A stretch of DNA of 55,142 nt. It comes from a virus. The stretch lies in the IMG/VR virus record IMGVR_UViG_3300045988_062587, one strand, 5' to 3'. A program made the position numbers and the translations under genes. Position 1 is the stretch's first letter, and each line of letters starts with the position of its first letter. Under the pieces are notes generated by a model, which was not told the DNA's origin, searched no databases, and saw only the letters and a list, made by a program, of their open reading frames with translations. Positions 6,971 to 55,142 of the stretch are shown here, piece after piece.

Positions 6971-8105
6971 GGTTCTGCTCCTCCTTGATGCGGGCGTTGT
7001 GGTCGTTGTAGATGGTGGTCCAGAGGATGCGCAGGATACGCATCTTGGGATCTCCGTACAGCAGCCCCTCATACATGGTCTTGTAGTGCTTCTGTTCAGC
7101 GATACCATAGGTCTTTATGAACAGGCCTCGCCAGTGGTCGATGTGGGATAAGGTGTCCTTGGCGATGGTGTACCGCTCCGGGTGGAGGAACAGCAGGTCT
7201 TTGCAGAGGGCTTTATAATCCTTCTGTTCGGTATCTGCTTCCAGCTCACGCCGCTTGCGGGTGCTGCGCCGGAACATCTCGGAATCCCAATAAAGCAGAA
7301 CGAGGTAGGCGTTTGGCTCTCGCCGCTGGATACGCTCCCACAGGTCGTTGTCGGTTTCTGCAACCCACCGTAGGCCTTGTGTGCTGGTATCTCCAAAGAA
7401 AGCGCAAAGCCGGAGTGCATTTTTATGCACACCAGCTTCGTACAAACGCATATAGATTTCAGGGAATTCAAGGTTTCGCTCTTTGATGTACAGCCAAACA
7501 TCGGAATCAGCCCAATCGTAGATGGGATAGAACTTGCCGCCTTTTGTGATACGCTCCATTTTGGTGTTGGCGATACACTTAAAGCGGGTCAGGCTTTCTG
7601 CTGTGCGCAGGCCGACCAGCTGAATGCCGTCGCGGAACGCCTTTTCGCAGAACGTCTGGTAGTTCATCTCTCCGGGGTGGTGCAGGTATGGGCTGTACCT
7701 GATGGCAAAATCTGGCGGGGTACGCATCCACACATCTTCTTTGCCAGGCTCCCATGTTATCCACGATTCTGACGCGGAAAGGTGGTCTATCACGCACACC
7801 TGCTTGAACGGCAAGCAAAACCATAAGAATTTCGCGCCGACCGACAGGAAGTTGCGCCGCCAGCGGTGTGCTGCATCGACCATGGAGGGGTAAAGTCCTT
7901 CCTCGTCAATGAACGTCACCGTCAGCTGCTTGGGGTCGAGCTCTCCGGAGAGAATCATCTCATACACGAGATTGGCCATGCACAGGCTGTCCTTGCCAGA
8001 GGAAAACGACAGATAGATTTTGCAGCCGTTTGCGAACACATTGCGGATACGGATTTTCGCCGCCCGCAGCACGTTCATGCTGCTTTCCACTACTTTCACA
8101 GGCAT
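6957..8105 (-). CDS. PAPS-reductase-family PP-loop ATPase, IbrA/DndC-like
   Basis: PP-loop motif YLSFSSGKDS near the N-terminus and a long helical C-terminal extension like IbrA. It overlaps both flanking ParB-like genes. Confidence 0.8.
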   Translation of the reverse strand: MPVKVVESSMNVLRAAKIRIRNVFANGCKIYLSFSSGKDSLCMANLVYEMILSGELDPKQLTVTFIDEEGLYPSMVDAAHRWRRNFLSVGAKFLWFCLPFKQVCVIDHLSASESWITWEPGKEDVWMRTPPDFAIRYSPYLHHPGEMNYQTFCEKAFRDGIQLVGLRTAESLTRFKCIANTKMERITKGGKFYPIYDWADSDVWLYIKERNLEFPEIYMRLYEAGVHKNALRLCAFFGDTSTQGLRWVAETDNDLWERIQRREPNAYLVLLYWDSEMFRRSTRKRRELEADTEQKDYKALCKDLLFLHPERYTIAKDTLSHIDHWRGLFIKTYGIAEQKHYKTMYEGLLYGDPKMRILRILWTTIYNDHNARIKEEQNHGKH

Positions 8106-26143: not shown

Positions 26144-26266
26144 ATGTTTTTGACTACAACTGACAACATACAAGGCAAAAATGTAACGGAATATTTGGGT
26201 ATCGTAGCTTCTGTCATTCTGACCGTTATGCCTGGCGGCAACAAGATGATGGGTGTTTCTCTATGA
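26144..26266 (+). pseudogene. 5' fragment of a YbjQ/UPF0145-family gene (40 codons), translationally coupled to the BRCT gene
   Basis: MFLTTTDNIQGKNVTEYLGIVAS matches the conserved YbjQ N-terminus (compare E. coli [23 protein letters not shown]) and then diverges. Its TGA overlaps the next ATG. Confidence 0.5.
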
Positions 26267-26610
26267 ATCTGAAAGAAATCGCATCGCACTTGCAGGAATT
26301 TAAGAGTGTTTGTGTGACCGGGAATCCAGTCATGCTGAGAAATAGAACAGATTTTCTTGATATTATTTCTGCGTATGGCTTGACTATGGACATGAACGTG
26401 TCAAAAAAGACAGGTCTTTTGATTGTGTGCAGCGACTCAATGCAAAAGAAAATCGACAGAGCGGATGCCCTGAATATTCCAATCGTTTCGGAGCAGCAAT
26501 GGTTTGAACTCATGCCGGAACTTGAGGCCGCTGGAATGTGGAACGGAAAGCCAATTTCATTCGCGGATGACGATGGTATCTACCGTTTTGATGTGGGTGG
26601 TGATGGATAA
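26263..26610 (+). CDS. BRCT-domain protein
   Basis: VCVTGNPVMLRNRTDFLDIISAYGLTMDMNVSKKTGLLIVCSDS..KKIDRADALNIPIVSEQQWFELM resembles the LigA C-terminal BRCT domain. Its stop overlaps the integrase ATG. Confidence 0.7.
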   Translation: MNLKEIASHLQEFKSVCVTGNPVMLRNRTDFLDIISAYGLTMDMNVSKKTGLLIVCSDSMQKKIDRADALNIPIVSEQQWFELMPELEAAGMWNGKPISFADDDGIYRFDVGGDG

Positions 26611-28413: not shown

Positions 28414-28680
28414 ATGATTAGGATTTTGCTGTCAACCCGCCTTGGCGAACGGCGGATGACACAGAGCGACCTTGCTCGTGTCACAGGGATTCGCAGTCAG
28501 ACTATCAACGAGTTGTACCACGATTTTGCGGAGCGTGTAAGTCTGGACGACCTCGACCTCATCTGTGAGGCACTGGACTGTGACCTCGAAGACCTCATTG
28601 TGCGAGAGCCCAACATTGAGCGCAGGGTCAAAGAGGTACGTCATATCCCTCAGACCGTGAACAAGTCTCGCAAGAAATAA
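28414..28680 (+). CDS. XRE-family HTH regulator (paralogue 1)
   Basis: MIRILLSTRLGERRMTQSDLARVTGIRSQTINELY...LDLICEALDCDLEDLI. Confidence 0.75.
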   Translation: MIRILLSTRLGERRMTQSDLARVTGIRSQTINELYHDFAERVSLDDLDLICEALDCDLEDLIVREPNIERRVKEVRHIPQTVNKSRKK

Positions 28681-28688
28681 CCTCTCCT

Positions 28689-28719
28689 GCCCGGATGCGT
28701 CAAGCATCCGGGCTTTTTT
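28689..28719 (+). terminator. Rho-independent terminator after XRE paralogue 1 (overlaps the 3' end of the convergent XRE gene)
   Basis: GCCCGGATGC-gtcaa-GCATCCGGGC followed by T6. Confidence 0.6.
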
Positions 28720-28927
28720 CGTTCTCATCCGGCACGAATTCCAGAAGATCTGCGGGCTGGCAGTCCAGAACGGTGCACAGCTTGTCCAGAACGTCCAACG
28801 GAATATGCTTGACGGAGTTGTTGTTCATGCCCGACAGAGTGGGCTGGCGAATCCCGGTCATTGCGACCAAATCCTTTTGTTTGATGCCTTTTTCGGCAAG
28901 CACGGCTTTCAACTTGATGCGAATCAT
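28700..28927 (-). CDS. XRE-family HTH regulator (paralogue 2), divergent from the cargo operon
   Basis: MIRIKLKAVLAEKGIKQKDLVAMTGIRQPTLSGM...LDKLCTVLDCQPADLL. Same architecture as the gene at 28414..28680. Confidence 0.75.
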   Translation of the reverse strand: MIRIKLKAVLAEKGIKQKDLVAMTGIRQPTLSGMNNNSVKHIPLDVLDKLCTVLDCQPADLLEFVPDENEKSPDA

Positions 28928-28948: not shown

Positions 28949-28977
28949 ACTATATCACACTTACCTGAAAATTGCAA
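28949..28977 (-). promoter_or_regulatory. Promoter of XRE paralogue 2: TTGCAA-N17-TGaTATAGT
   Basis: On the minus strand the -35 is at 28977-28972, the spacer is 17 nt, and the extended -10 ends at 28949. Confidence 0.5.
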
Positions 28978-28980
28978 CGC

Positions 28981-29004
28981 TTTTCGTAAAAATATTTACG
29001 AAAA
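28981..29004. promoter_or_regulatory. Inverted repeat TTTTCGTAAA-aata-TTTACGAAAA between the divergent promoters
   Basis: 10-nt perfect arms read directly from the sequence. Confidence 0.45.
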
Positions 29005-29018
29005 ATGTTGTTTTACTA

Positions 29019-29047
29019 TTGACATACAACGAAATTCGTTGTATAAT
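29019..29047 (+). promoter_or_regulatory. Consensus sigma-70 promoter of the cargo operon: TTGACA-N17-TATAAT
   Basis: Perfect hexamers at 29019-29024 and 29042-29047 with a 17-nt spacer. Confidence 0.7.
29026..29042. promoter_or_regulatory. Operator-like palindrome ACAACGAA-a-TTCGTTGT filling the promoter spacer
   Basis: Perfect 8-nt arms inside the -35/-10 spacer. Confidence 0.5.
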
Positions 29048-29106: not shown

Positions 29107-29205
29107 ATGACAAGCAAGGAATTTGCAAAGCTCACCAGAGCCGAGCAGGTAGCCCGCTTTGAAGCATACAAAAAAGCGGCTCAGGATCGCACCCTGAACC
29201 GCTAA
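29107..29205 (+). CDS. Possible 32-codon leader ORF in the cargo-operon leader
   Basis: A GGGGGTGA RBS precedes the ATG at 29107. Translation: MTSKEFAKLTRAEQVARFEAYKKAAQDRTLNR. It is enclosed by the 12-nt complementary segments at 29070-29081 and 29232-29243. Confidence 0.3.
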   Translation: MTSKEFAKLTRAEQVARFEAYKKAAQDRTLNR

Positions 29206-29295
29206 CCGCTAAAAGCCCGTTATCCACAAGCCCCTTGCACCTCCATTTTATTTTTTTATTGAAGATTTGTCAAGAGTAAATCGGAGGTTTTCAGC

Positions 29296-29859
29296 ATGAA
29301 GTTCATTGACATCAACCGAGAGTTCACCGCAGCAGCCAATAGCTACATGGCGCAGGGCTACTACATCAACGCCGGAACGATGGGCGGAAGCCAGGGCGAG
29401 GTCGCTCACATCGACCTCACAAACGGCACCGAGATCATCCGGGTGCTGCTCACCACATTCAACAACTACCTTGGCACCGAGGGTGTGGAGCTGATTGTTG
29501 GCCGGGTCAAGGACGACATCAAGCCTAATCAGGAAGACCGCTGGAACACCGTCTGGAATGAGCGTCTGGAGGTCATCAGCAACAAGAAGTTCTACCGTCT
29601 GAACAACCGCGCACAGGATGGATTCTACGGCACAGAGGAGGAAGCAAACGCCGCCGAGGAGAAGCGGTTTGACCGCTACAAGAGCCGCCGCAGCAATGAC
29701 AGTGCGGTGGATGTGACCACAAAGGCCGCTCCGATGGTCAAAAAGTACATCCACGAGAAGTTCGGTGTCCGGCGCGTGAAGATGGACGACATCAAGGTCG
29801 TCAAGCACGGTGGCCGCTACACCGTCACCTACCACAAGCACGCTGCACAGCTGCACTAA
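29296..29859 (+). CDS. Hypothetical protein (187 aa), first cargo gene
   Basis: GGAGG RBS and natural Lys/Glu/Asn-rich composition; family not recognised. Confidence 0.7.
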   Translation: MKFIDINREFTAAANSYMAQGYYINAGTMGGSQGEVAHIDLTNGTEIIRVLLTTFNNYLGTEGVELIVGRVKDDIKPNQEDRWNTVWNERLEVISNKKFYRLNNRAQDGFYGTEEEANAAEEKRFDRYKSRRSNDSAVDVTTKAAPMVKKYIHEKFGVRRVKMDDIKVVKHGGRYTVTYHKHAAQLH

Positions 29860-29874
29860 AGGGAGGGCGCAAAG

Positions 29875-30813
29875 ATGGTCACGATTCAGAGCCAAAACTT
29901 CGGCGTTGAGATTGAAATGACGGGCGTTTCCCGCGGAACAGCCGCCTCCGTCATCGCCAACTACTTCGGTGTCGGCGGTATCCACTTTGCAGGTGGCACC
30001 TACCAGACGTACGAGGCCAAGGATAGCAAAGGCCGCGTATGGAAGTGCATGAGAGACGGTTCCATCACTCCCCGGCGGCGCAGAGGTGGTGCAATCGTAG
30101 AGGCAGACGATACCTACCGCTGCGAGGTCGTGACCCCGATTCTCCAGTATGAGGACATCACCGACCTGCAAGAGGTCATCCGGGCACTGGTCAAGAAGGG
30201 TGCCATGGCGAACAGCTCCTGTGGTATCCACGTCCATGTTGACGGTGCGAACCACACGCCCGAAAGCCTCTGCCGGCTGCTGAACTTCGCCACCGGGCGG
30301 CAGGATCTGTTCTACGAAGCCCTGCAGATCGGCAGCCGCGCAGACCACTGGTGCCACAAAATCAGCCCTGCCCTGTTCCGTGAAATGAAGAAGAACGGCC
30401 GGGCAAGCCGGAACGATGCAGAGCGCATCTGGTACAGCGTAGTGAATGACGGATATGATGGAGGTGTGGATTCTTCCCACTACAACAGCACCCGGTATCA
30501 CGGAATCAACCTCCATGCATTCTTCACAAAGGGCACCGTGGAGTTCCGGCTGTTCAACGGAACCACCCACGCCGGGCGCATCAAAGCATACGTTCAGTTC
30601 TGCTTGGCAATGAGCGCATGGGCTATCAACTGTGACCACGACAACCTTCACTTCAAGTCCATCAGCGGTTACACCCAGCAGCAGAAGCACGATTTGATGA
30701 TGCGAGTGCTCACCAAGCGTCTTGGCATGAGAGGCCCGGAATTCAAGACCGCCCGGCTGCATCTCACCTCTGCATTTTTGACAGAGGCCGAGAGCGAAAA
30801 TACCGCCGCCTAA
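29875..30813 (+). CDS. Amidoligase_2-family (GCS2/glutamine-synthetase-like) putative amidoligase
   Basis: FGVEIEMTG...W.CMRDGSI...CEVVTPIL.YEDI..LQEVIRAL...GA....SCGIHVHVD matches the mobile-element amidoligase pattern. Confidence 0.8.
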   Translation: MVTIQSQNFGVEIEMTGVSRGTAASVIANYFGVGGIHFAGGTYQTYEAKDSKGRVWKCMRDGSITPRRRRGGAIVEADDTYRCEVVTPILQYEDITDLQEVIRALVKKGAMANSSCGIHVHVDGANHTPESLCRLLNFATGRQDLFYEALQIGSRADHWCHKISPALFREMKKNGRASRNDAERIWYSVVNDGYDGGVDSSHYNSTRYHGINLHAFFTKGTVEFRLFNGTTHAGRIKAYVQFCLAMSAWAINCDHDNLHFKSISGYTQQQKHDLMMRVLTKRLGMRGPEFKTARLHLTSAFLTEAESENTAA

Positions 30814-30864
30814 AAACCGAAAAGCTGCGCTATCTGGCTATACGGGCATTTGGAGGATATGACA

Positions 30865-31269
30865 ATGAAACTTTACAAATACTCCGGCACCATCGAGGAG
30901 CTTGCCGTTGAACGCGGCCGAATCTCCTATATCAAACTCTTTGATGTGACCGACTTCGACAAAGCACCAACCAGACTGGAAGTCTTCGGTGCGCTCGGCA
31001 AGTACATTGAGGCCATCGAGGGAACCGATGCCGAAGAGCGATACATCAAGAGTGATTGGTACTTTGACAGCAACCTGTATCTGCGCCGCATTGAGATTCC
31101 CGGCGGTGAGGTTGGCCGCCCGGCGAAAATCATCACCCAGAGCCCGGACAACATCGACCAGTTGGAGATCTTCGGCCAGCAGGACTATATCCAGACCAGC
31201 AAGCCGGAATCCATGTCCTGCAAGGAAATTTACCGCTGGTCCGATTGGGAACGCCAGAACATGAAGTAA
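30865..31269 (+). CDS. Hypothetical protein (134 aa)
   Basis: The ATG at 30865 lies 8 nt after GGAGG. The ORF track starts at the TTG at 30850. Confidence 0.65.
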   Translation: MKLYKYSGTIEELAVERGRISYIKLFDVTDFDKAPTRLEVFGALGKYIEAIEGTDAEERYIKSDWYFDSNLYLRRIEIPGGEVGRPAKIITQSPDNIDQLEIFGQQDYIQTSKPESMSCKEIYRWSDWERQNMK

Positions 31270-31282
31270 GGAGGTGGTGACC

Positions 31283-31678
31283 ATGTTCAGTATTACCGAT
31301 AACGAGAGGCTGCGGGATGCGTACGCACTCTTGATGTTCATGCAGAGCGACATTCCCGCCTCTGCCGAAAAGAGGGCTGCCGTGAAAAACTTGGCGGCAA
31401 CCGTTAAGATGGAGATCCGGGCCTACAATAACCGCCCCGCCCCTGATGTGCATATCATCTGTGCCGACTATGACGGCCGTCTGGAGCTTGTTCAGCTGCC
31501 CGATAAGCTGGACGAGGCGCACGAGATGGACGCTACCAACTGGTTTCTTAACCATCATTATTTGAAGAGTTACAACAGCCCCTATGACTGCACAGGGCAG
31601 GAGTTCACGAATTGGTTTTATCTGTTCCGGCGGCGCGGTCACTGGTTTGCATATCACTCGGTTAGCCGAGATGTTTAA
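31283..31678 (+). CDS. Hypothetical protein (131 aa)
   Basis: An AAGGAGG RBS precedes the ATG at 31283. The ORF track starts at the GTG at 31274. Confidence 0.65.
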   Translation: MFSITDNERLRDAYALLMFMQSDIPASAEKRAAVKNLAATVKMEIRAYNNRPAPDVHIICADYDGRLELVQLPDKLDEAHEMDATNWFLNHHYLKSYNSPYDCTGQEFTNWFYLFRRRGHWFAYHSVSRDV

Positions 31679-31690
31679 GGAGGAAGTACA

Positions 31691-31936
31691 ATGACGGACG
31701 AAAAAGCTATCGAAAAGATGCTCTATGACCAGCAGCAGGGCTGGCCGCTGTGCCCCCGCTGCGGCGAGAGGATGCCGGACAAACTGACCCACGGAGCACT
31801 GAGCCGCCACGCCAATGGCGTGTACATCTGTGAGGCTTGCGGCACCGATGAAGCCCTCCGGGACTGGACCGGGAACGTCAAACCGCTGTCCGACTGGGTG
31901 CTGGTTCGCGTATACAATGGAGATCTTCGGAGGTAA
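31691..31936 (+). CDS. Zinc-ribbon protein (81 aa)
   Basis: CPRCGERM...CEACGTDEAL. Confidence 0.65.
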   Translation: MTDEKAIEKMLYDQQQGWPLCPRCGERMPDKLTHGALSRHANGVYICEACGTDEALRDWTGNVKPLSDWVLVRVYNGDLRR

Positions 31937-31941
31937 TCGAT

Positions 31942-32121
31942 ATGGAAGAAATGCTCCTGTCACTGAATGGACCGTGGTCAAACGCAGCCTGCATCGGCTA
32001 CTGTGTCATGGCGATGCGCAGCGCCGGTTTGAGTGAGAAAACGCAGCGCAAAGTCCTCGATGAACTGACCCAGTGTTTCGACGACGTGAGTGTCGAAGAC
32101 GCTGCACAGATGAAGTTCTAA
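31942..32121 (+). CDS. Small hypothetical protein (59 aa), below the ORF-track cutoff
   Basis: GGAGG lies 8 nt before the ATG. Translation: MEEMLLSLNGPWSNAACIGYCVMAMRSAGLSEKTQRKVLDELTQCFDDVSVEDAAQMKF. Confidence 0.45.
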   Translation: MEEMLLSLNGPWSNAACIGYCVMAMRSAGLSEKTQRKVLDELTQCFDDVSVEDAAQMKF

Positions 32122-32125
32122 CAAA

Positions 32126-32173
32126 CAAAAAATCCCCCTACACTGGCCCGAAGGTCAATGCAGGGGGATTTTT
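32126..32173. terminator. Bidirectional terminator between the cargo operon and the lysis cassette
   Basis: 9-bp stem AATCCCCCT/AGGGGGATT with an A-run upstream and a T-run downstream. Confidence 0.6.
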
Positions 32174-34378: not shown

Positions 34379-34717
34379 TCAGGTATTCTCAGTGTCATCC
34401 GTATCGGAGACATTCAACTCCAGAAGGGTCAGGCGATAAGCCTGATCCACGTTCATCTCGTCGGCATCCTCGATGGCACTTTTGGATTCCATGATCCAGC
34501 TGCCGATGTCGGTCTGCTCCAGCATGACCGTTTCCAGCTCATCGCCCATCTGATCGCGGTCGAACAGCTGGTACGGCGTCCCGGCATAAGAAATGCCCGA
34601 AGCATCAGGCTCCGGGCAGAGGATATAACAGCCGTTGTCGGCTTTTTTGATGTAGGTCACGTCCTCGGTCAAGGCAAGGACGGTGCCATCACTGGCTTTG
34701 ATGATTTTGTTGAACAA
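34379..34717 (-). CDS. Hypothetical acidic protein (112 aa)
   Basis: ORF whose start overlaps the RT 3' end. Confidence 0.55.
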   Translation of the reverse strand: MFNKIIKASDGTVLALTEDVTYIKKADNGCYILCPEPDASGISYAGTPYQLFDRDQMGDELETVMLEQTDIGSWIMESKSAIEDADEMNVDQAYRLTLLELNVSDTDDTENT

Positions 34718-35889
34718 GGCACTCTACCTCCAAAAATTGCATAGCAAAGCCGCCGCAGACGCAGCAGCCGCCCATGGTCATCAAAATTTTTATAGTAGGC
34801 TTCTTGGCAGTTCATATACTGCGCTACCTCCTGCAGGGTACGTTTCCCGGCCAGCCATTCACGGTGGAACAGCTTCAGTTTCCTCCGTGCGCGTATCACG
34901 CCGTCACGACTACCATTGACTTTGATTTTCCCGGTCTCGGTCAAGGTAAAACGAGCCTTGCACCAGCGGAAAGGCTTTGTCAGAGGGATGATCTTGCATT
35001 TCTTCTTGTTGACCGGGATGCCGCGGATTTCAAACTGGCGCACGATAGCGCGGCCCAGCTTTTTCAGATCTTCGATATCCGGGAGAATGATGCAGTAATC
35101 ATCCATGTAGTGTCCGGCGCTATGCGTGGACATCTGGCATTTGATCCAGTTGTCCACAGCACTGGGCATTGCCGCCATTTCTTGTTGGCTCGGCTCAACG
35201 CCCAGCGGCATCCCACGGCCCGGAAATTCGCCGGGAGCAGTATCAATAATGGTATCTGCTATCCGCCGAAAATCAGGGTTCAGGATATACCGCTGGTGCC
35301 GCTGATAGATGATAGAATGGGGTGCATAAGGAAAGAACTTCTTCAGGTCGAGCAGCAACACCCCGCCCGCACGGCCATACTTGCGGTAATGCCGTGCCAG
35401 CTGCTGTTTGATGCGCTTGATCTGCCAGTGCAGTCCCTTACCAATCCGGCTTGCACCGTTGTCATAGATCATGCTGGGGTCGTAAAGCGGCTCCAACACT
35501 TCCTTGCTGATGACCTTGTGGATTTGTCGGTCTGTAATATGAGGAGCGTCAATCCCACGAATCTTGCCGCGTTCGCAGACCGTGAAATGAACGTATTTCT
35601 TAGGCCGCCACCTTTTGGCCAAAATAAGCCGCCGCTGCTTCGCTGTGTGGGAAAACAGATGCCGCTCAAAGTTCTGCGTGCTCTGCTTCCAGCGTACACC
35701 GTTGCAGCATTTCCGGCCATATTTGAACATCGTGTGGTAACTGAATACTTCTCCCAACGAACCGAGGGCGGCACAACGAGCTTCCTGTCTGGCTCGGCGT
35801 GCTGCCCGGCGGCGCTGGTATCGTGCTTCATGGCGCTCCTGACTTGTCATAAAAGTATTCGCTCCTCGTACAGATGAATTGTAGGGCAT
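34669..35889 (-). CDS. DGR reverse transcriptase
   Basis: Catalytic HYMDDYCII, the DGR-typical GxxxSQ motif (GVEPSQ), and LLLDLKKFF. The more likely start is the ATG at 35850 (MTSQERHEA, GAGGAG upstream). Confidence 0.9.
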   Translation of the reverse strand: MPYNSSVRGANTFMTSQERHEARYQRRRAARRARQEARCAALGSLGEVFSYHTMFKYGRKCCNGVRWKQSTQNFERHLFSHTAKQRRLILAKRWRPKKYVHFTVCERGKIRGIDAPHITDRQIHKVISKEVLEPLYDPSMIYDNGASRIGKGLHWQIKRIKQQLARHYRKYGRAGGVLLLDLKKFFPYAPHSIIYQRHQRYILNPDFRRIADTIIDTAPGEFPGRGMPLGVEPSQQEMAAMPSAVDNWIKCQMSTHSAGHYMDDYCIILPDIEDLKKLGRAIVRQFEIRGIPVNKKKCKIIPLTKPFRWCKARFTLTETGKIKVNGSRDGVIRARRKLKLFHREWLAGKRTLQEVAQYMNCQEAYYKNFDDHGRLLRLRRLCYAIFGGRVPCSTKSSKPVMAPSLP

Positions 35890-54041: not shown

Positions 54042-55124
54042 TTAGCCGACCATGTTCTTGGCGCGAATCCACGGAATGTAGTTCTTGGGTGCAGCCAGAG
54101 GACGAGACTTCAGGGCGGTCTTGCGAGTGTCGTTTTCCTGATCGATGCTGAACTTCGGAACACGGCGGCCAGAAATGGTGGACTGGATGGTGTCGCCGTA
54201 GTTGATCTGAGTGATAGCACCATACATCAGATGGCCGCAGCCGGGAGCCGTAATCACGGCATCGGTCTTGGGGAAGTAACTCTGCTCCTTGTCGGTGGAA
54301 TCCACATAGGTTTCATCAACAGAAATCAGATTCAACTTGTAGCCGCGGAAGTTGAGGGTGCCACCGTAGACAACGCCGTCGTATGCGCTCAGCTGCTGCT
54401 CAATCTGGCCGATGATGATGCCGGAATTCTTATCCAGCAGACGCTGAACCTTTTCGAGATTCATCACTGCGTCATAAACATCAGCACCCAGCAGCAGGTC
54501 GGCAGCGCGCAGACCACGCTTGGACAGCAGCCGGCACATAGCCGGAACGTCGCCAAAGAAATTGCCACCTTCCTCGTTCCACTTGTGGGCGGCAGTGTAG
54601 ATGTGGTCGTTCTCGTGGCCGGGATTGTAGAAATTCACGACCTTTGCCTCGCCCTTGGTCACGTTGTCGAGCATCTCCTGCATGACGCATCCGTTGTCCA
54701 GCATGGTCTGTGCGCACATCCACTCCTCGGTGCGGATGATACGGCCATCCATGTCAGCCAGATCGTTCTGGACCAGTTTTGCGGCACGCTGGGCAGGGGT
54801 GCTGTTGGCATAGATGGCCTCGCCGAAGCCACGCTTCGTCAGGTCATCAGAGGTCAGAGGACGGCTCACACCGATGGACGCAGGCTCAAACTCGTGGATC
54901 TCGTAGCCCATGCGCTCCATCGGGATTGCGCCGACACGAGGCGACACAAAGGCTGCCATCTTGCGGTCGCCGTCCATGTACTCGGTCAGCACCTTGTTGG
55001 AGCTGAAGATGTCGCCCTCCTCCGTGGGAAAGTAGCGGTCACGGAAAAAAGTCTGCTTGGGCACAATGCGCTTCTGCACGGCCATCAGGGTATAGGTGTC
55101 AAAAAAATTCAGTTCAGCAGGCAT
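54042..55124 (-). CDS. Major capsid protein, lambda gpE family
   Basis: 360 aa. FFDTYTLMAVQKRIVPKQTFFRDRYF..E....S.KVL.EY.DGDRKMA.FV.P is the gpE-family N-terminal pattern. Its 5' end lies in the terminal overlap. Confidence 0.85.
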   Translation of the reverse strand: MPAELNFFDTYTLMAVQKRIVPKQTFFRDRYFPTEEGDIFSSNKVLTEYMDGDRKMAAFVSPRVGAIPMERMGYEIHEFEPASIGVSRPLTSDDLTKRGFGEAIYANSTPAQRAAKLVQNDLADMDGRIIRTEEWMCAQTMLDNGCVMQEMLDNVTKGEAKVVNFYNPGHENDHIYTAAHKWNEEGGNFFGDVPAMCRLLSKRGLRAADLLLGADVYDAVMNLEKVQRLLDKNSGIIIGQIEQQLSAYDGVVYGGTLNFRGYKLNLISVDETYVDSTDKEQSYFPKTDAVITAPGCGHLMYGAITQINYGDTIQSTISGRRVPKFSIDQENDTRKTALKSRPLAAPKNYIPWIRAKNMVG

Positions 55125-55142
55125 TGTTATATCCTCCTCACA
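55088..55142. repeat. Terminal overlap copy 2 (identical to 1..55)
   Basis: Exact 55-nt identity with the window start. Confidence 0.95.

Follow-up and report, generated by a model that had tools for sequence, protein, structure and literature searches.

An apparently orphaned Amidoligase_2 enzyme in a probably repressor-controlled, mosaic accessory operon of a Taranis-like Faecalibacterium phage

Does the amidoligase gene of a temperate phage form one functional system with the small genes that are packed around it, or does it merely share an operon with them? This question is raised by the viral DNA IMGVR_UViG_3300045988_062587 (55,142 nucleotides; this whole stretch is called the window here), in which positions 29296–32121 of the plus strand carry a gene for an enzyme of the Amidoligase_2 family together with five further genes. 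An earlier note on this DNA had treated the six genes as a single amidoligase-centred system. According to the analysis presented here, the locus is probably a self-contained, repressor-controlled mosaic accessory operon with swappable cargo, and not a six-part amidoligase machine. The window ends with the same exact 55-bp direct repeat with which it starts (1–55 and 55088–55142) and therefore constitutes a complete circular phage genome of about 55.1 kb. Over the operon region it shares 95.6% nucleotide identity with gp83–gp77 of Faecalibacterium phage FP_Taranis and with phage Pioen; it belongs to Taranisvirus and is a Taranis-like temperate Faecalibacterium phage. The annotation of gp83–gp77 in FP_Taranis reads 'amidoligase enzyme' plus hypothetical proteins, and the operon is not discussed in the published papers on Taranis and Pioen.

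All six open reading frames (ORFs) of the earlier note are present on the plus strand. They are named g1 to g6 as cargo genes, with g0 for a leader ORF in front of them, and the ATG starts follow the annotation of FP_Taranis. The first cargo gene, g1 (29296–29859), encodes 187 amino acids (aa) and is followed by the amidoligase gene g2 (29875–30813, 312 aa), by g3 (30865–31269, 134 aa, acidic; the ORF finder had set a TTG start at 30850), g4 (31283–31678, 131 aa; GTG start of the ORF finder at 31274), g5 (31691–31936, 81 aa, a zinc ribbon with CPRC...CEAC) and g6 (31942–32121, 59 aa, acidic and helical). The leader ORF g0 (29107–29205, plus strand), which is gp83 in FP_Taranis and was absent from the earlier note, encodes a basic peptide of 32 aa with a pI of 10.2. 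A GGAGG-type ribosome-binding site precedes each ORF and the gaps between the operon genes measure 5–51 nt. Among relatives, the ratio of nonsynonymous to synonymous substitution rates (dN/dS) lies at 0.04–0.28 for all seven ORFs, with 0.04 for g6. This is the mark of purifying selection, and all seven are therefore real coding genes; the values for the holin and endolysin genes were set aside, as their alleles were too divergent for a good alignment. The description as a six-gene operon on the plus strand thus stands.

What holds these genes together can be judged from the way they are exchanged among relatives. A survey anchored on the conserved first XRE gene upstream of the operon yielded 70 distinct complete islands, which fall into 32 different architectures. 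The most constant cargo gene is g1, present in 61 of the 70 islands and always in first position; g3 occurs in 54, g5 in 53, g6 in 52 and g4 in 50 of them, and the amidoligase in 38. The commonest single architecture, with all six genes together, accounts for 26 islands, and another 12 hold the five partners without the amidoligase. The amidoligase slot is filled in 21 islands by an unrelated gene for an 86-aa protein (MKKVIFTYDSKDMKHG..., with a CWSC motif; L161, L195, L196 and L073–L076 are among its carriers), for which neither Pfam nor PHROGs gave a match. In three of these islands (L161, L195 and L196) it is the 86-aa gene, and not the amidoligase, that stands behind a g1 with 100% identity to that of the window. 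A co-variation of g1 alleles with the amidoligase, which we had considered, was rejected on account of these three. L073–L076 are integrated prophages and show the same scaffold, again with no amidoligase. Furthermore, other genes can take the place of g4 without a change at g6 and vice versa; in some relatives it is a helix-turn-helix (HTH) gene that stands in for g6. Since the amidoligase and its partners are swapped independently, they are to be regarded as exchangeable cassettes and not as one system. Co-occurrence across mobile elements, which the earlier note had named as a check, accordingly speaks against a fixed gene set.

The alternative cargo that was tested consists mostly of small proteins of unknown function and of extra HTH regulators, with DarA_C (in L071) and DUF7678 as the only domains recognisable by Pfam and PHROGs. 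The island L071 (7411–7818) belongs to a Dysosmobacter prophage, in which a g1 homologue of 47% identity is followed by the DarA_C (anti-restriction) protein, and no amidoligase is present. The presence of DarA_C at this place hints that the hotspot is able to hold counter-defence genes.

For the enzyme itself, the assignment to Amidoligase_2 made in the earlier note is fully borne out. The g2 protein matches PF12224 with an E value of 5.9e-61 and 206.9 bits, far above the cut-off of 22, and its residues 6–246 align to positions 2–244 of the 245 profile positions; it also falls into phrog_2443 (E 2e-92). Residues that are invariant among 15 homologues, down to 38% identity, include E12, E14, E84, H119, H121, R207, H209, E223 and R225, and the hEhE strand as well as the CGxHxH, RYH and ExR motifs are kept. 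From what is known of the superfamily, we take these conserved Glu, His and Arg residues to be metal- and nucleotide-binding and catalytic. Judged by its sequence, g2 belongs, as an intact enzyme, to the Amidoligase_2 clade of Bacillota phages. The family is related to the superfamily of carboxylate-amine ligases that includes glutamine synthetase (GS), GCS2 and PafA. Sequence and profile searches of the PDB detected no solved structure for any Amidoligase_2 member, and in the literature we found no demonstrated function of a phage amidoligase or GGCT, in line with what the earlier note had said of the family. The C-terminus of g2 reads ...TAA (window positions 30805–30813). Of 120 close homologues, 100 share this Ala-Ala end, and an Ala-terminal amidoligase is found in 57 of 80 species-level representatives. 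By analogy with the end of the ssrA/ClpX degron, which it resembles, such a tail may make the enzyme deliberately short-lived.

Relatives of this amidoligase are widespread. Within human-gut phages, the clade comprises 6,320 protein clusters at E <= 1e-10; it is found at no fewer than 577 places in species-representative Bacillota genomes and in 58 phage records, many of them 'Candidatus Heliusvirales'. Among 72,556 plasmid records only 2 gave an amidoligase match, and a plasmid or integrative and conjugative element (ICE) distribution of the clade was rejected for this reason. For this clade, the range 'phages, plasmids and ICEs' given in the earlier note thus finds only weak backing.

This breadth allowed a census of partners at 72 species-level Bacillota genome loci with enough downstream sequence. 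Directly downstream of the amidoligase, 66 of the 72 (92%) have a GGACT/AIG2-type gamma-glutamyl cyclotransferase, and a g5-like zinc ribbon follows the amidoligase in 6. None of the 72 has g1, g3, g4 or g6 beside it. Another companion is an upstream paralogue of 250–300 aa, family A7, which lies directly 5' of the amidoligase in about 22 of 80 loci (L078–L157); further A7 paralogues were found in L068 (4110–4874) and L069 (3896–4624). A7 and the amidoligase profile match each other with a hhalign probability of 99% (E 7e-18). In the alignment the catalytic motifs are not kept, and a C-terminal 'NEKYxxRxWLLRLG...AFR' module is retained; A7 may be a pseudo-enzyme partner.

Neither companion could be traced in the window. 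A search with hidden Markov models (HMMs) gave no GGACT match among its ORFs at E <= 10, and an A7-type paralogue is absent as well. The possibility that g3 or g4 is a diverged GGACT was rejected, given a hhalign probability of 0.7% for g3 and the lack of any GGACT HMM match in the window; so was a role of g1 as degenerate amidoligase paralogue, its hhalign probability against A7 being 1.1%. The conserved partners of the amidoligase clade are thus GGACT and, in some loci, the degenerate paralogue, and the Taranis enzyme is an 'orphaned' member of this two- to four-gene module.

Amidoligase_2–GGACT/GGCT pairs in phages and prophages of Bacillota were reportedly predicted by Iyer, Abhiman, Burroughs and Aravind (2009, Mol Biosyst). 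Compared with these pairs, the window has the same enzyme family, with 37–69% identity to GGACT-adjacent members, the same conserved catalytic positions, and likewise a temperate phage with XRE control; even the optional zinc-ribbon gene is present in the form of g5. What differs is that the window has no GGACT and no degenerate paralogue, and that the lineage-specific orphan g1 is found upstream instead. By these comparisons the Taranis locus belongs to the enzyme family but lacks the defining feature of the pair.

The surroundings of the pair in Heliusvirales-type phages, where it is situated beside DNA methyltransferase and ParB-like nuclease genes and upstream of the terminase, also bear on another explanation, in which the amidoligase would work in a DNA or nucleotide hypermodification pathway and shield the phage DNA from restriction. 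This is favoured by that neighbourhood and by viral metagenomes, in which thymidine-hypermodification clusters are accompanied by genes for amidoligases and amidotransferases (PMC8989533). In the stretches of FP_Taranis that were inspected, however, the annotation names no gene for a hydroxymethylase, a kinase or an enzyme of the aGPT-Pplase type, and an amidoligase that is optional among near-identical phages is unlikely to serve a genome-wide DNA modification. We therefore regard this pathway as extremely improbable for the Taranis phage.

The census and the island survey together decide on the reading of the six genes as one machine, which would contain, for example, a substrate or tag protein, the ligase and accessory factors and would act in defence, counter-defence or host modification. 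It has in its favour the tight packing in one operon, the rank of the six-gene form (26 of 70 islands) as the most common architecture, a statistical enrichment of g3 and g0 in amidoligase-bearing islands, and the g5-like zinc ribbons that follow distant amidoligase–GGACT pairs, too. These points are outweighed by the 12 islands with the five partners only, by the 86-aa gene in the slot of 21 islands, three times next to an identical g1, by the independent replacement of g4 and g6, and by the absence of g1, g3, g4 and g6 from the 72 species-level loci. A precedent for a GS-like protein-modifying ligase does exist in PafA and Dop of the Pup-proteasome system, which are GS-like carboxylate-amine ligases attaching a protein tag, and these belong to the same superfamily and share the predicted chemistry. 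But no small protein of the operon has a Pup-like Gly-Gly-Gln/Glu end (g0 ends with ...TLNR, g5 with ...DLRR and g6 with ...QMKF), searches against solved structures detected no similarity, and there is no proteasome context. The single six-gene system appears largely refuted by these comparisons and we consider it very unlikely; with the independent exchange among near-identical phages and the missing GGACT partner, the interpretation of the earlier note has to be given up in this respect.

The promoter of the operon is of the sigma-70 type and matches the consensus in 12 of 12 positions (TTGACA-17-TATAAT, 29019..29047, plus strand), the best site within 24–33 kb, so that the 'perfect promoter' of the earlier note is real, with a transcription unit starting about 280 nt upstream of the start given there. 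What that description did not include is that the promoter is embedded in operator-like repeats. Divergent from it lies a gene for an XRE-family HTH protein of 75 aa (28700..28927, minus strand; PF13443, E 1.2e-22), the presumed repressor of the operon. The 180-bp region between this gene and g0 harbours three related operator-like sites (28975..29044; inverted repeats I5, I16 and I20), each of 15 bp with a CAACG-N3-TTCGT core and spaced 21 and 31 bp apart. The 17-mer of the operator site is unique within the window, where 0.15 occurrences would be expected by chance. CAACGCTTTTCGTAA and its mirror form an imperfect palindrome (28975–29010) over the minus-strand XRE promoter (28977..28949). 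The third site is a perfect palindrome, ATACAACGAA-A-TTCGTTGTAT (10+1+10, 21 bp), at 29024–29044, where it takes up the spacer of the plus-strand promoter and reaches into the first part of its -10 element.

The 75-aa XRE gene, the operators and g0 form a block whose conservation stays at 97% even in cases in which the identity of the following gene drops to 54%. These three elements are always inherited together, and other relatives swap the whole block for another with its own XRE gene, its own repeats and its own leader ORF of 37 aa. This indicates that g0 belongs to the regulatory block and not to the cargo. The same design of three operators and a strong promoter is seen in L073 with different sequences, and in L004, an amidoligase–GGACT island of a more distant prophage, three sites of another sequence are laid out in the same way (7756–7839).

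Between g0 and g1 a candidate antisense unit was predicted on the minus strand (29165..29273). Its promoter, TTGACA-17-TAAAAT at 29273..29245, has 11 of 12 consensus matches and is convergent to the operon; its terminator (29203..29175) has a 13-bp stem and a T-tail. The predicted RNA of about 70 nt would form two hairpins (-34.2 kcal/mol, z -4.0) and overlap the 3' end of g0; no variation informative for covariation was seen in its sequence. An equivalent antisense arrangement is predicted for the non-homologous leader of L073 (5870–5988). An unusual degree of structure is predicted for the leader on the plus strand, too (z -3.2); a riboswitch or other known leader RNA was rejected, as Rfam gave sub-threshold noise only. 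From this layout, the operon is probably repressor-controlled and not constitutive, and the design suggests that expression of the cargo is tightly timed.

Such a layout recalls the immI region of phage P22, that is mnt and Pant-arc-ant with the sar antisense RNA. On this model the locus would be a secondary immunity or antirepressor region, with the XRE gene in the role of mnt, the promoter in that of Pant, g0 and the antisense unit in those of arc and sar, g1 as an antirepressor-like switch and the remaining genes as passengers. The correspondence goes point by point, from the divergent repressor and the operator-controlled strong promoter over the short first ORF of 32 aa to the convergent promoter and terminator before g1, and the design recurs in the non-homologous alternative module. 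The model would also account for g1 as the most constant gene (61 of 70 islands) and always the first of the cargo, and the main switch of the phage is located elsewhere (gp02/gp03). Yet neither Pfam nor PHROGs showed an ANT, Bro-N, KilA-C or other antirepressor domain in g1, no structure matched it, and g0 looks too short and too helical for a ribbon-helix-helix protein of the Arc type. None of the products is homologous to Mnt, Arc or Ant, the antisense RNA is a predicted one, and the cargo of the window is a multi-gene mosaic; moreover, the comparison with P22 is an analogy. As a full explanation it thus seems rather improbable to us.

The cargo proteins give few clues of their own. All are small, soluble and non-membrane. 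The g1 protein falls into phrog_38037 (function unknown), in a family of 317 proteins without a Pfam domain, and had a single, spurious Pfam match; its AlphaFold2 model (pLDDT 84.5) found no fold match in the PDB (best E 1.1) and only its own family among the viral models of BFVD. For g3, whose family has 149 cluster representatives, the model is very confident (pLDDT 97.2, pTM 0.90) and shows a beta-barrel. Its best PDB matches are OB-fold proteins, such as single-stranded DNA-binding proteins, anticodon-binding domains of aminoacyl-tRNA synthetases and superantigen-like proteins, none of them significant (E >= 0.04, TM <= 0.48); if the model is taken as a guide, g3 may be a binder of nucleic acid or oligosaccharide. 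Sequence and profile searches of the PDB returned nothing for g1 and g3. The g4 protein represents a narrow family of 288 proteins without a domain but with a conserved C-terminal motif, YDCTGQxFTNWFxLxRRxGHWFAYH. For g5 we found phrog_2945 (E 2e-7), a PHROG of unknown function, and sub-threshold zinc-ribbon matches in Pfam. It is 41–50% identical to the zinc ribbons that follow amidoligase–GGACT in L003–L006 and L058–L060, and matches L069 and L070 as well; in the window two other genes separate it from the amidoligase, and elsewhere it also occurs without any amidoligase. No family match was found for g6. The profile and structure searches of the five partners that the earlier note had proposed therefore led to no recognisable family, with g3 as weakly OB-like. 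Against PADLOC-DB v2 the six cargo proteins had no significant match, the best E values of 0.039 and 0.068 being due to short stretches, and NCBIfam yielded nothing useful; an assignment as a defence system was rejected on these grounds.

Behind the cargo, a bidirectional intrinsic terminator (32128..32173) is common to the operon and the convergent lysis cassette. As had been proposed, it works in both directions by prediction: the hairpin has a folding energy of -26.8 kcal/mol (z -5.6) on the plus strand and of -31.6 kcal/mol (z -6.1) on the minus strand, each time with a U-run. The operon has the same orientation as the integrase and XRE genes and is opposed to the lytic genes. On one side it is flanked by genes for a BRCT protein, a large serine integrase and two short XRE proteins, on the other by those for a holin, an M15 endolysin and the reverse transcriptase of a diversity-generating retroelement, which agrees with the location between integrase/XRE genes and lysis cassette given in the earlier note. 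The first of the two XRE genes encodes 88 aa (28414..28680, plus strand; PF13443 HTH_26, E 1.4e-20) and is the first gene at the end of the prophage next to the attachment site (att). It converges with the 75-aa XRE gene on a GC-rich hairpin terminator (28689..28713; 10-bp stem with 8 GC pairs, T-run). In integrated relatives, the host genes rplM-rpsI are directly upstream of this first XRE gene (rpsI in L003 and L004). In the integrated state the operon therefore has att on one side and the lysis cassette on the other, which places it at the outermost end of the prophage, and the label of a classic moron position is justified. Since the main lysis-lysogeny switch of Taranis (gp02/gp03) is on the far side of the integrase, the XRE pair adjacent to the operon has to be a separate regulatory module.

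Two of these neighbours deserve mention in their own right. The BRCT-domain protein (26263–26610, plus strand, 115 aa; PF00533, E 4e-7) is encoded by a gene whose end coincides with the start of the large serine integrase gene, with overlapping stop and start codons, and it weakly matches PDC-S48, a candidate defence model (E 6.6e-10). The integrase could have in this protein a cofactor or a directionality factor. The reverse transcriptase (34669–35889, minus strand; PF00078, YMDD motif) is that of the diversity-generating retroelement which earlier work described in Taranis and Pioen, with a DUF6273 protein as its target.

From position and orientation one might expect morons that are expressed in the lysogen, that is genes transcribed from the prophage which protect or modify the host by superinfection exclusion, defence or a gamma-glutamyl metabolic change. 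The operon has its own promoter and terminator, runs with the integrase and XRE genes against the lytic genes, sits at the extreme prophage end beside host DNA and varies in content as known prophage hotspots do. Temperate-phage moron hotspots such as those of the P2-like phages, and morons of the lambda bor/lom type, share with it the own promoter and terminator, the module boundary by att and lysis cassette and the high gene turnover. What sets the locus apart from them is its elaborate dedicated regulation, with two XRE genes, three operator-like sites and perhaps an antisense RNA. Besides, there is no significant PADLOC match (the two weak ones have E 0.04–0.07), and small, soluble, non-membrane products are unlike exclusion proteins and most defence enzymes. 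A promoter under operator-like sites together with an antisense unit argues for tight repression over steady expression. Expression independent of the lytic programme, as claimed in the earlier note, thus holds insofar as the operon is a separate unit with its own promoter and terminator directed against the lytic genes; freedom from control is doubtful in view of the palindrome, the flanking sites and the divergent XRE gene. Taken together, we judge lysogen-expressed morons to be conceivable and still unlikely.

A further parallel is offered by the operons for anti-CRISPR and other anti-defence proteins that are controlled by HTH regulators of the Aca type. Like these, the locus combines a very strong promoter under inverted repeats with an adjacent small HTH gene, and small soluble cargo of unknown function that differs between close phages. 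Unlike in them, the HTH gene does not come last in the operon but lies upstream in divergent orientation; Pfam and PHROGs found no known anti-defence family in the six cargo proteins of the window or in most of the alternative cargo families, except for DarA_C in the related island L071, and an enzyme of 312 aa is unusual as cargo. Overall, we see an ordinary, though well-organised, mosaic island, whose behaviour is that of a moron or anti-defence hotspot under a control of the Aca or immI kind.

For the mosaic operon, which we consider the best explanation, the following course of events can be proposed. The consensus promoter, under three operator-like sites and faced by the divergent gene for the 75-aa XRE protein, would drive a structured leader with the 32-aa ORF and the predicted convergent antisense RNA, followed by six tightly packed cargo genes up to the bidirectional terminator, and the slots for these genes are swapped independently by recombination among near-identical phages. 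The layout of promoter and operators suggests that in an established lysogen the operon is kept silent or throttled by the XRE protein, and that it would fire when the genome is in a cell free of repressor. The amidoligase, from its kinship with GS and GCS2, would join a carboxylate, probably the gamma-carboxylate of a glutamyl residue, to an amine on a host or phage molecule in an ATP-dependent reaction. In most phages of the clade, GGACT would split gamma-glutamyl-amine bonds into 5-oxoproline and the free amine, and in the Taranis phage the amidoligase would act without a phage-encoded cleaving enzyme. Because of the operator layout and the small, soluble, fast-turning-over cargo, a role in early host takeover or counter-defence fits weakly better than a constitutive lysogen defence.

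Several points weigh against this explanation and the timing proposed with it. Among the islands, g1 is enriched with the amidoligase (36 of 38 islands with it versus 25 of 32 without), and so is g3 (36 of 38 versus 18 of 32), which may stem from lineage or from a loose functional link. The 70 islands are related metagenomic contigs and not independent samples, and the calling of island ORFs, based on ATG and a ribosome-binding site, can miss genes. An orientation like that of the integrase and a position close to att are equally typical of lysogen-expressed genes. Furthermore, the relationship between repressor and operators as well as the antisense RNA are predictions from the sequence, and the chemistry of the amidoligase is deduced from family membership.

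The genes of this locus have already been deposited and annotated in FP_Taranis and Pioen, and nothing about them is categorically new; what is new are the analysis of partners, the natural variants with and without amidoligase and the regulatory design. Such a locus separates the enzyme from genes that are merely beside it. For the clade as a whole one may speculate, at low confidence, that it serves the phages of gut Firmicutes in counter-defence or host takeover, mostly in a pair with GGACT: the amidoligase would write a gamma-glutamyl-type amide mark on a molecule of host or phage, and GGACT would erase it, with the Ala-Ala tail keeping the amidoligase short-lived. The Taranis island might then be an Aca-like anti-defence locus under repressor and antisense control, and the presence or absence of the amidoligase might reflect an arms race with the defences of Faecalibacterium. 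The nearly isogenic natural variants, with either the amidoligase or the 86-aa gene in the same slot, together with the inducible relative Pioen, provide a direct route to the function of the enzyme. The amidoligase is a very common gene of gut phages, and the question of its function, long-standing as far as we know, has now become more testable.

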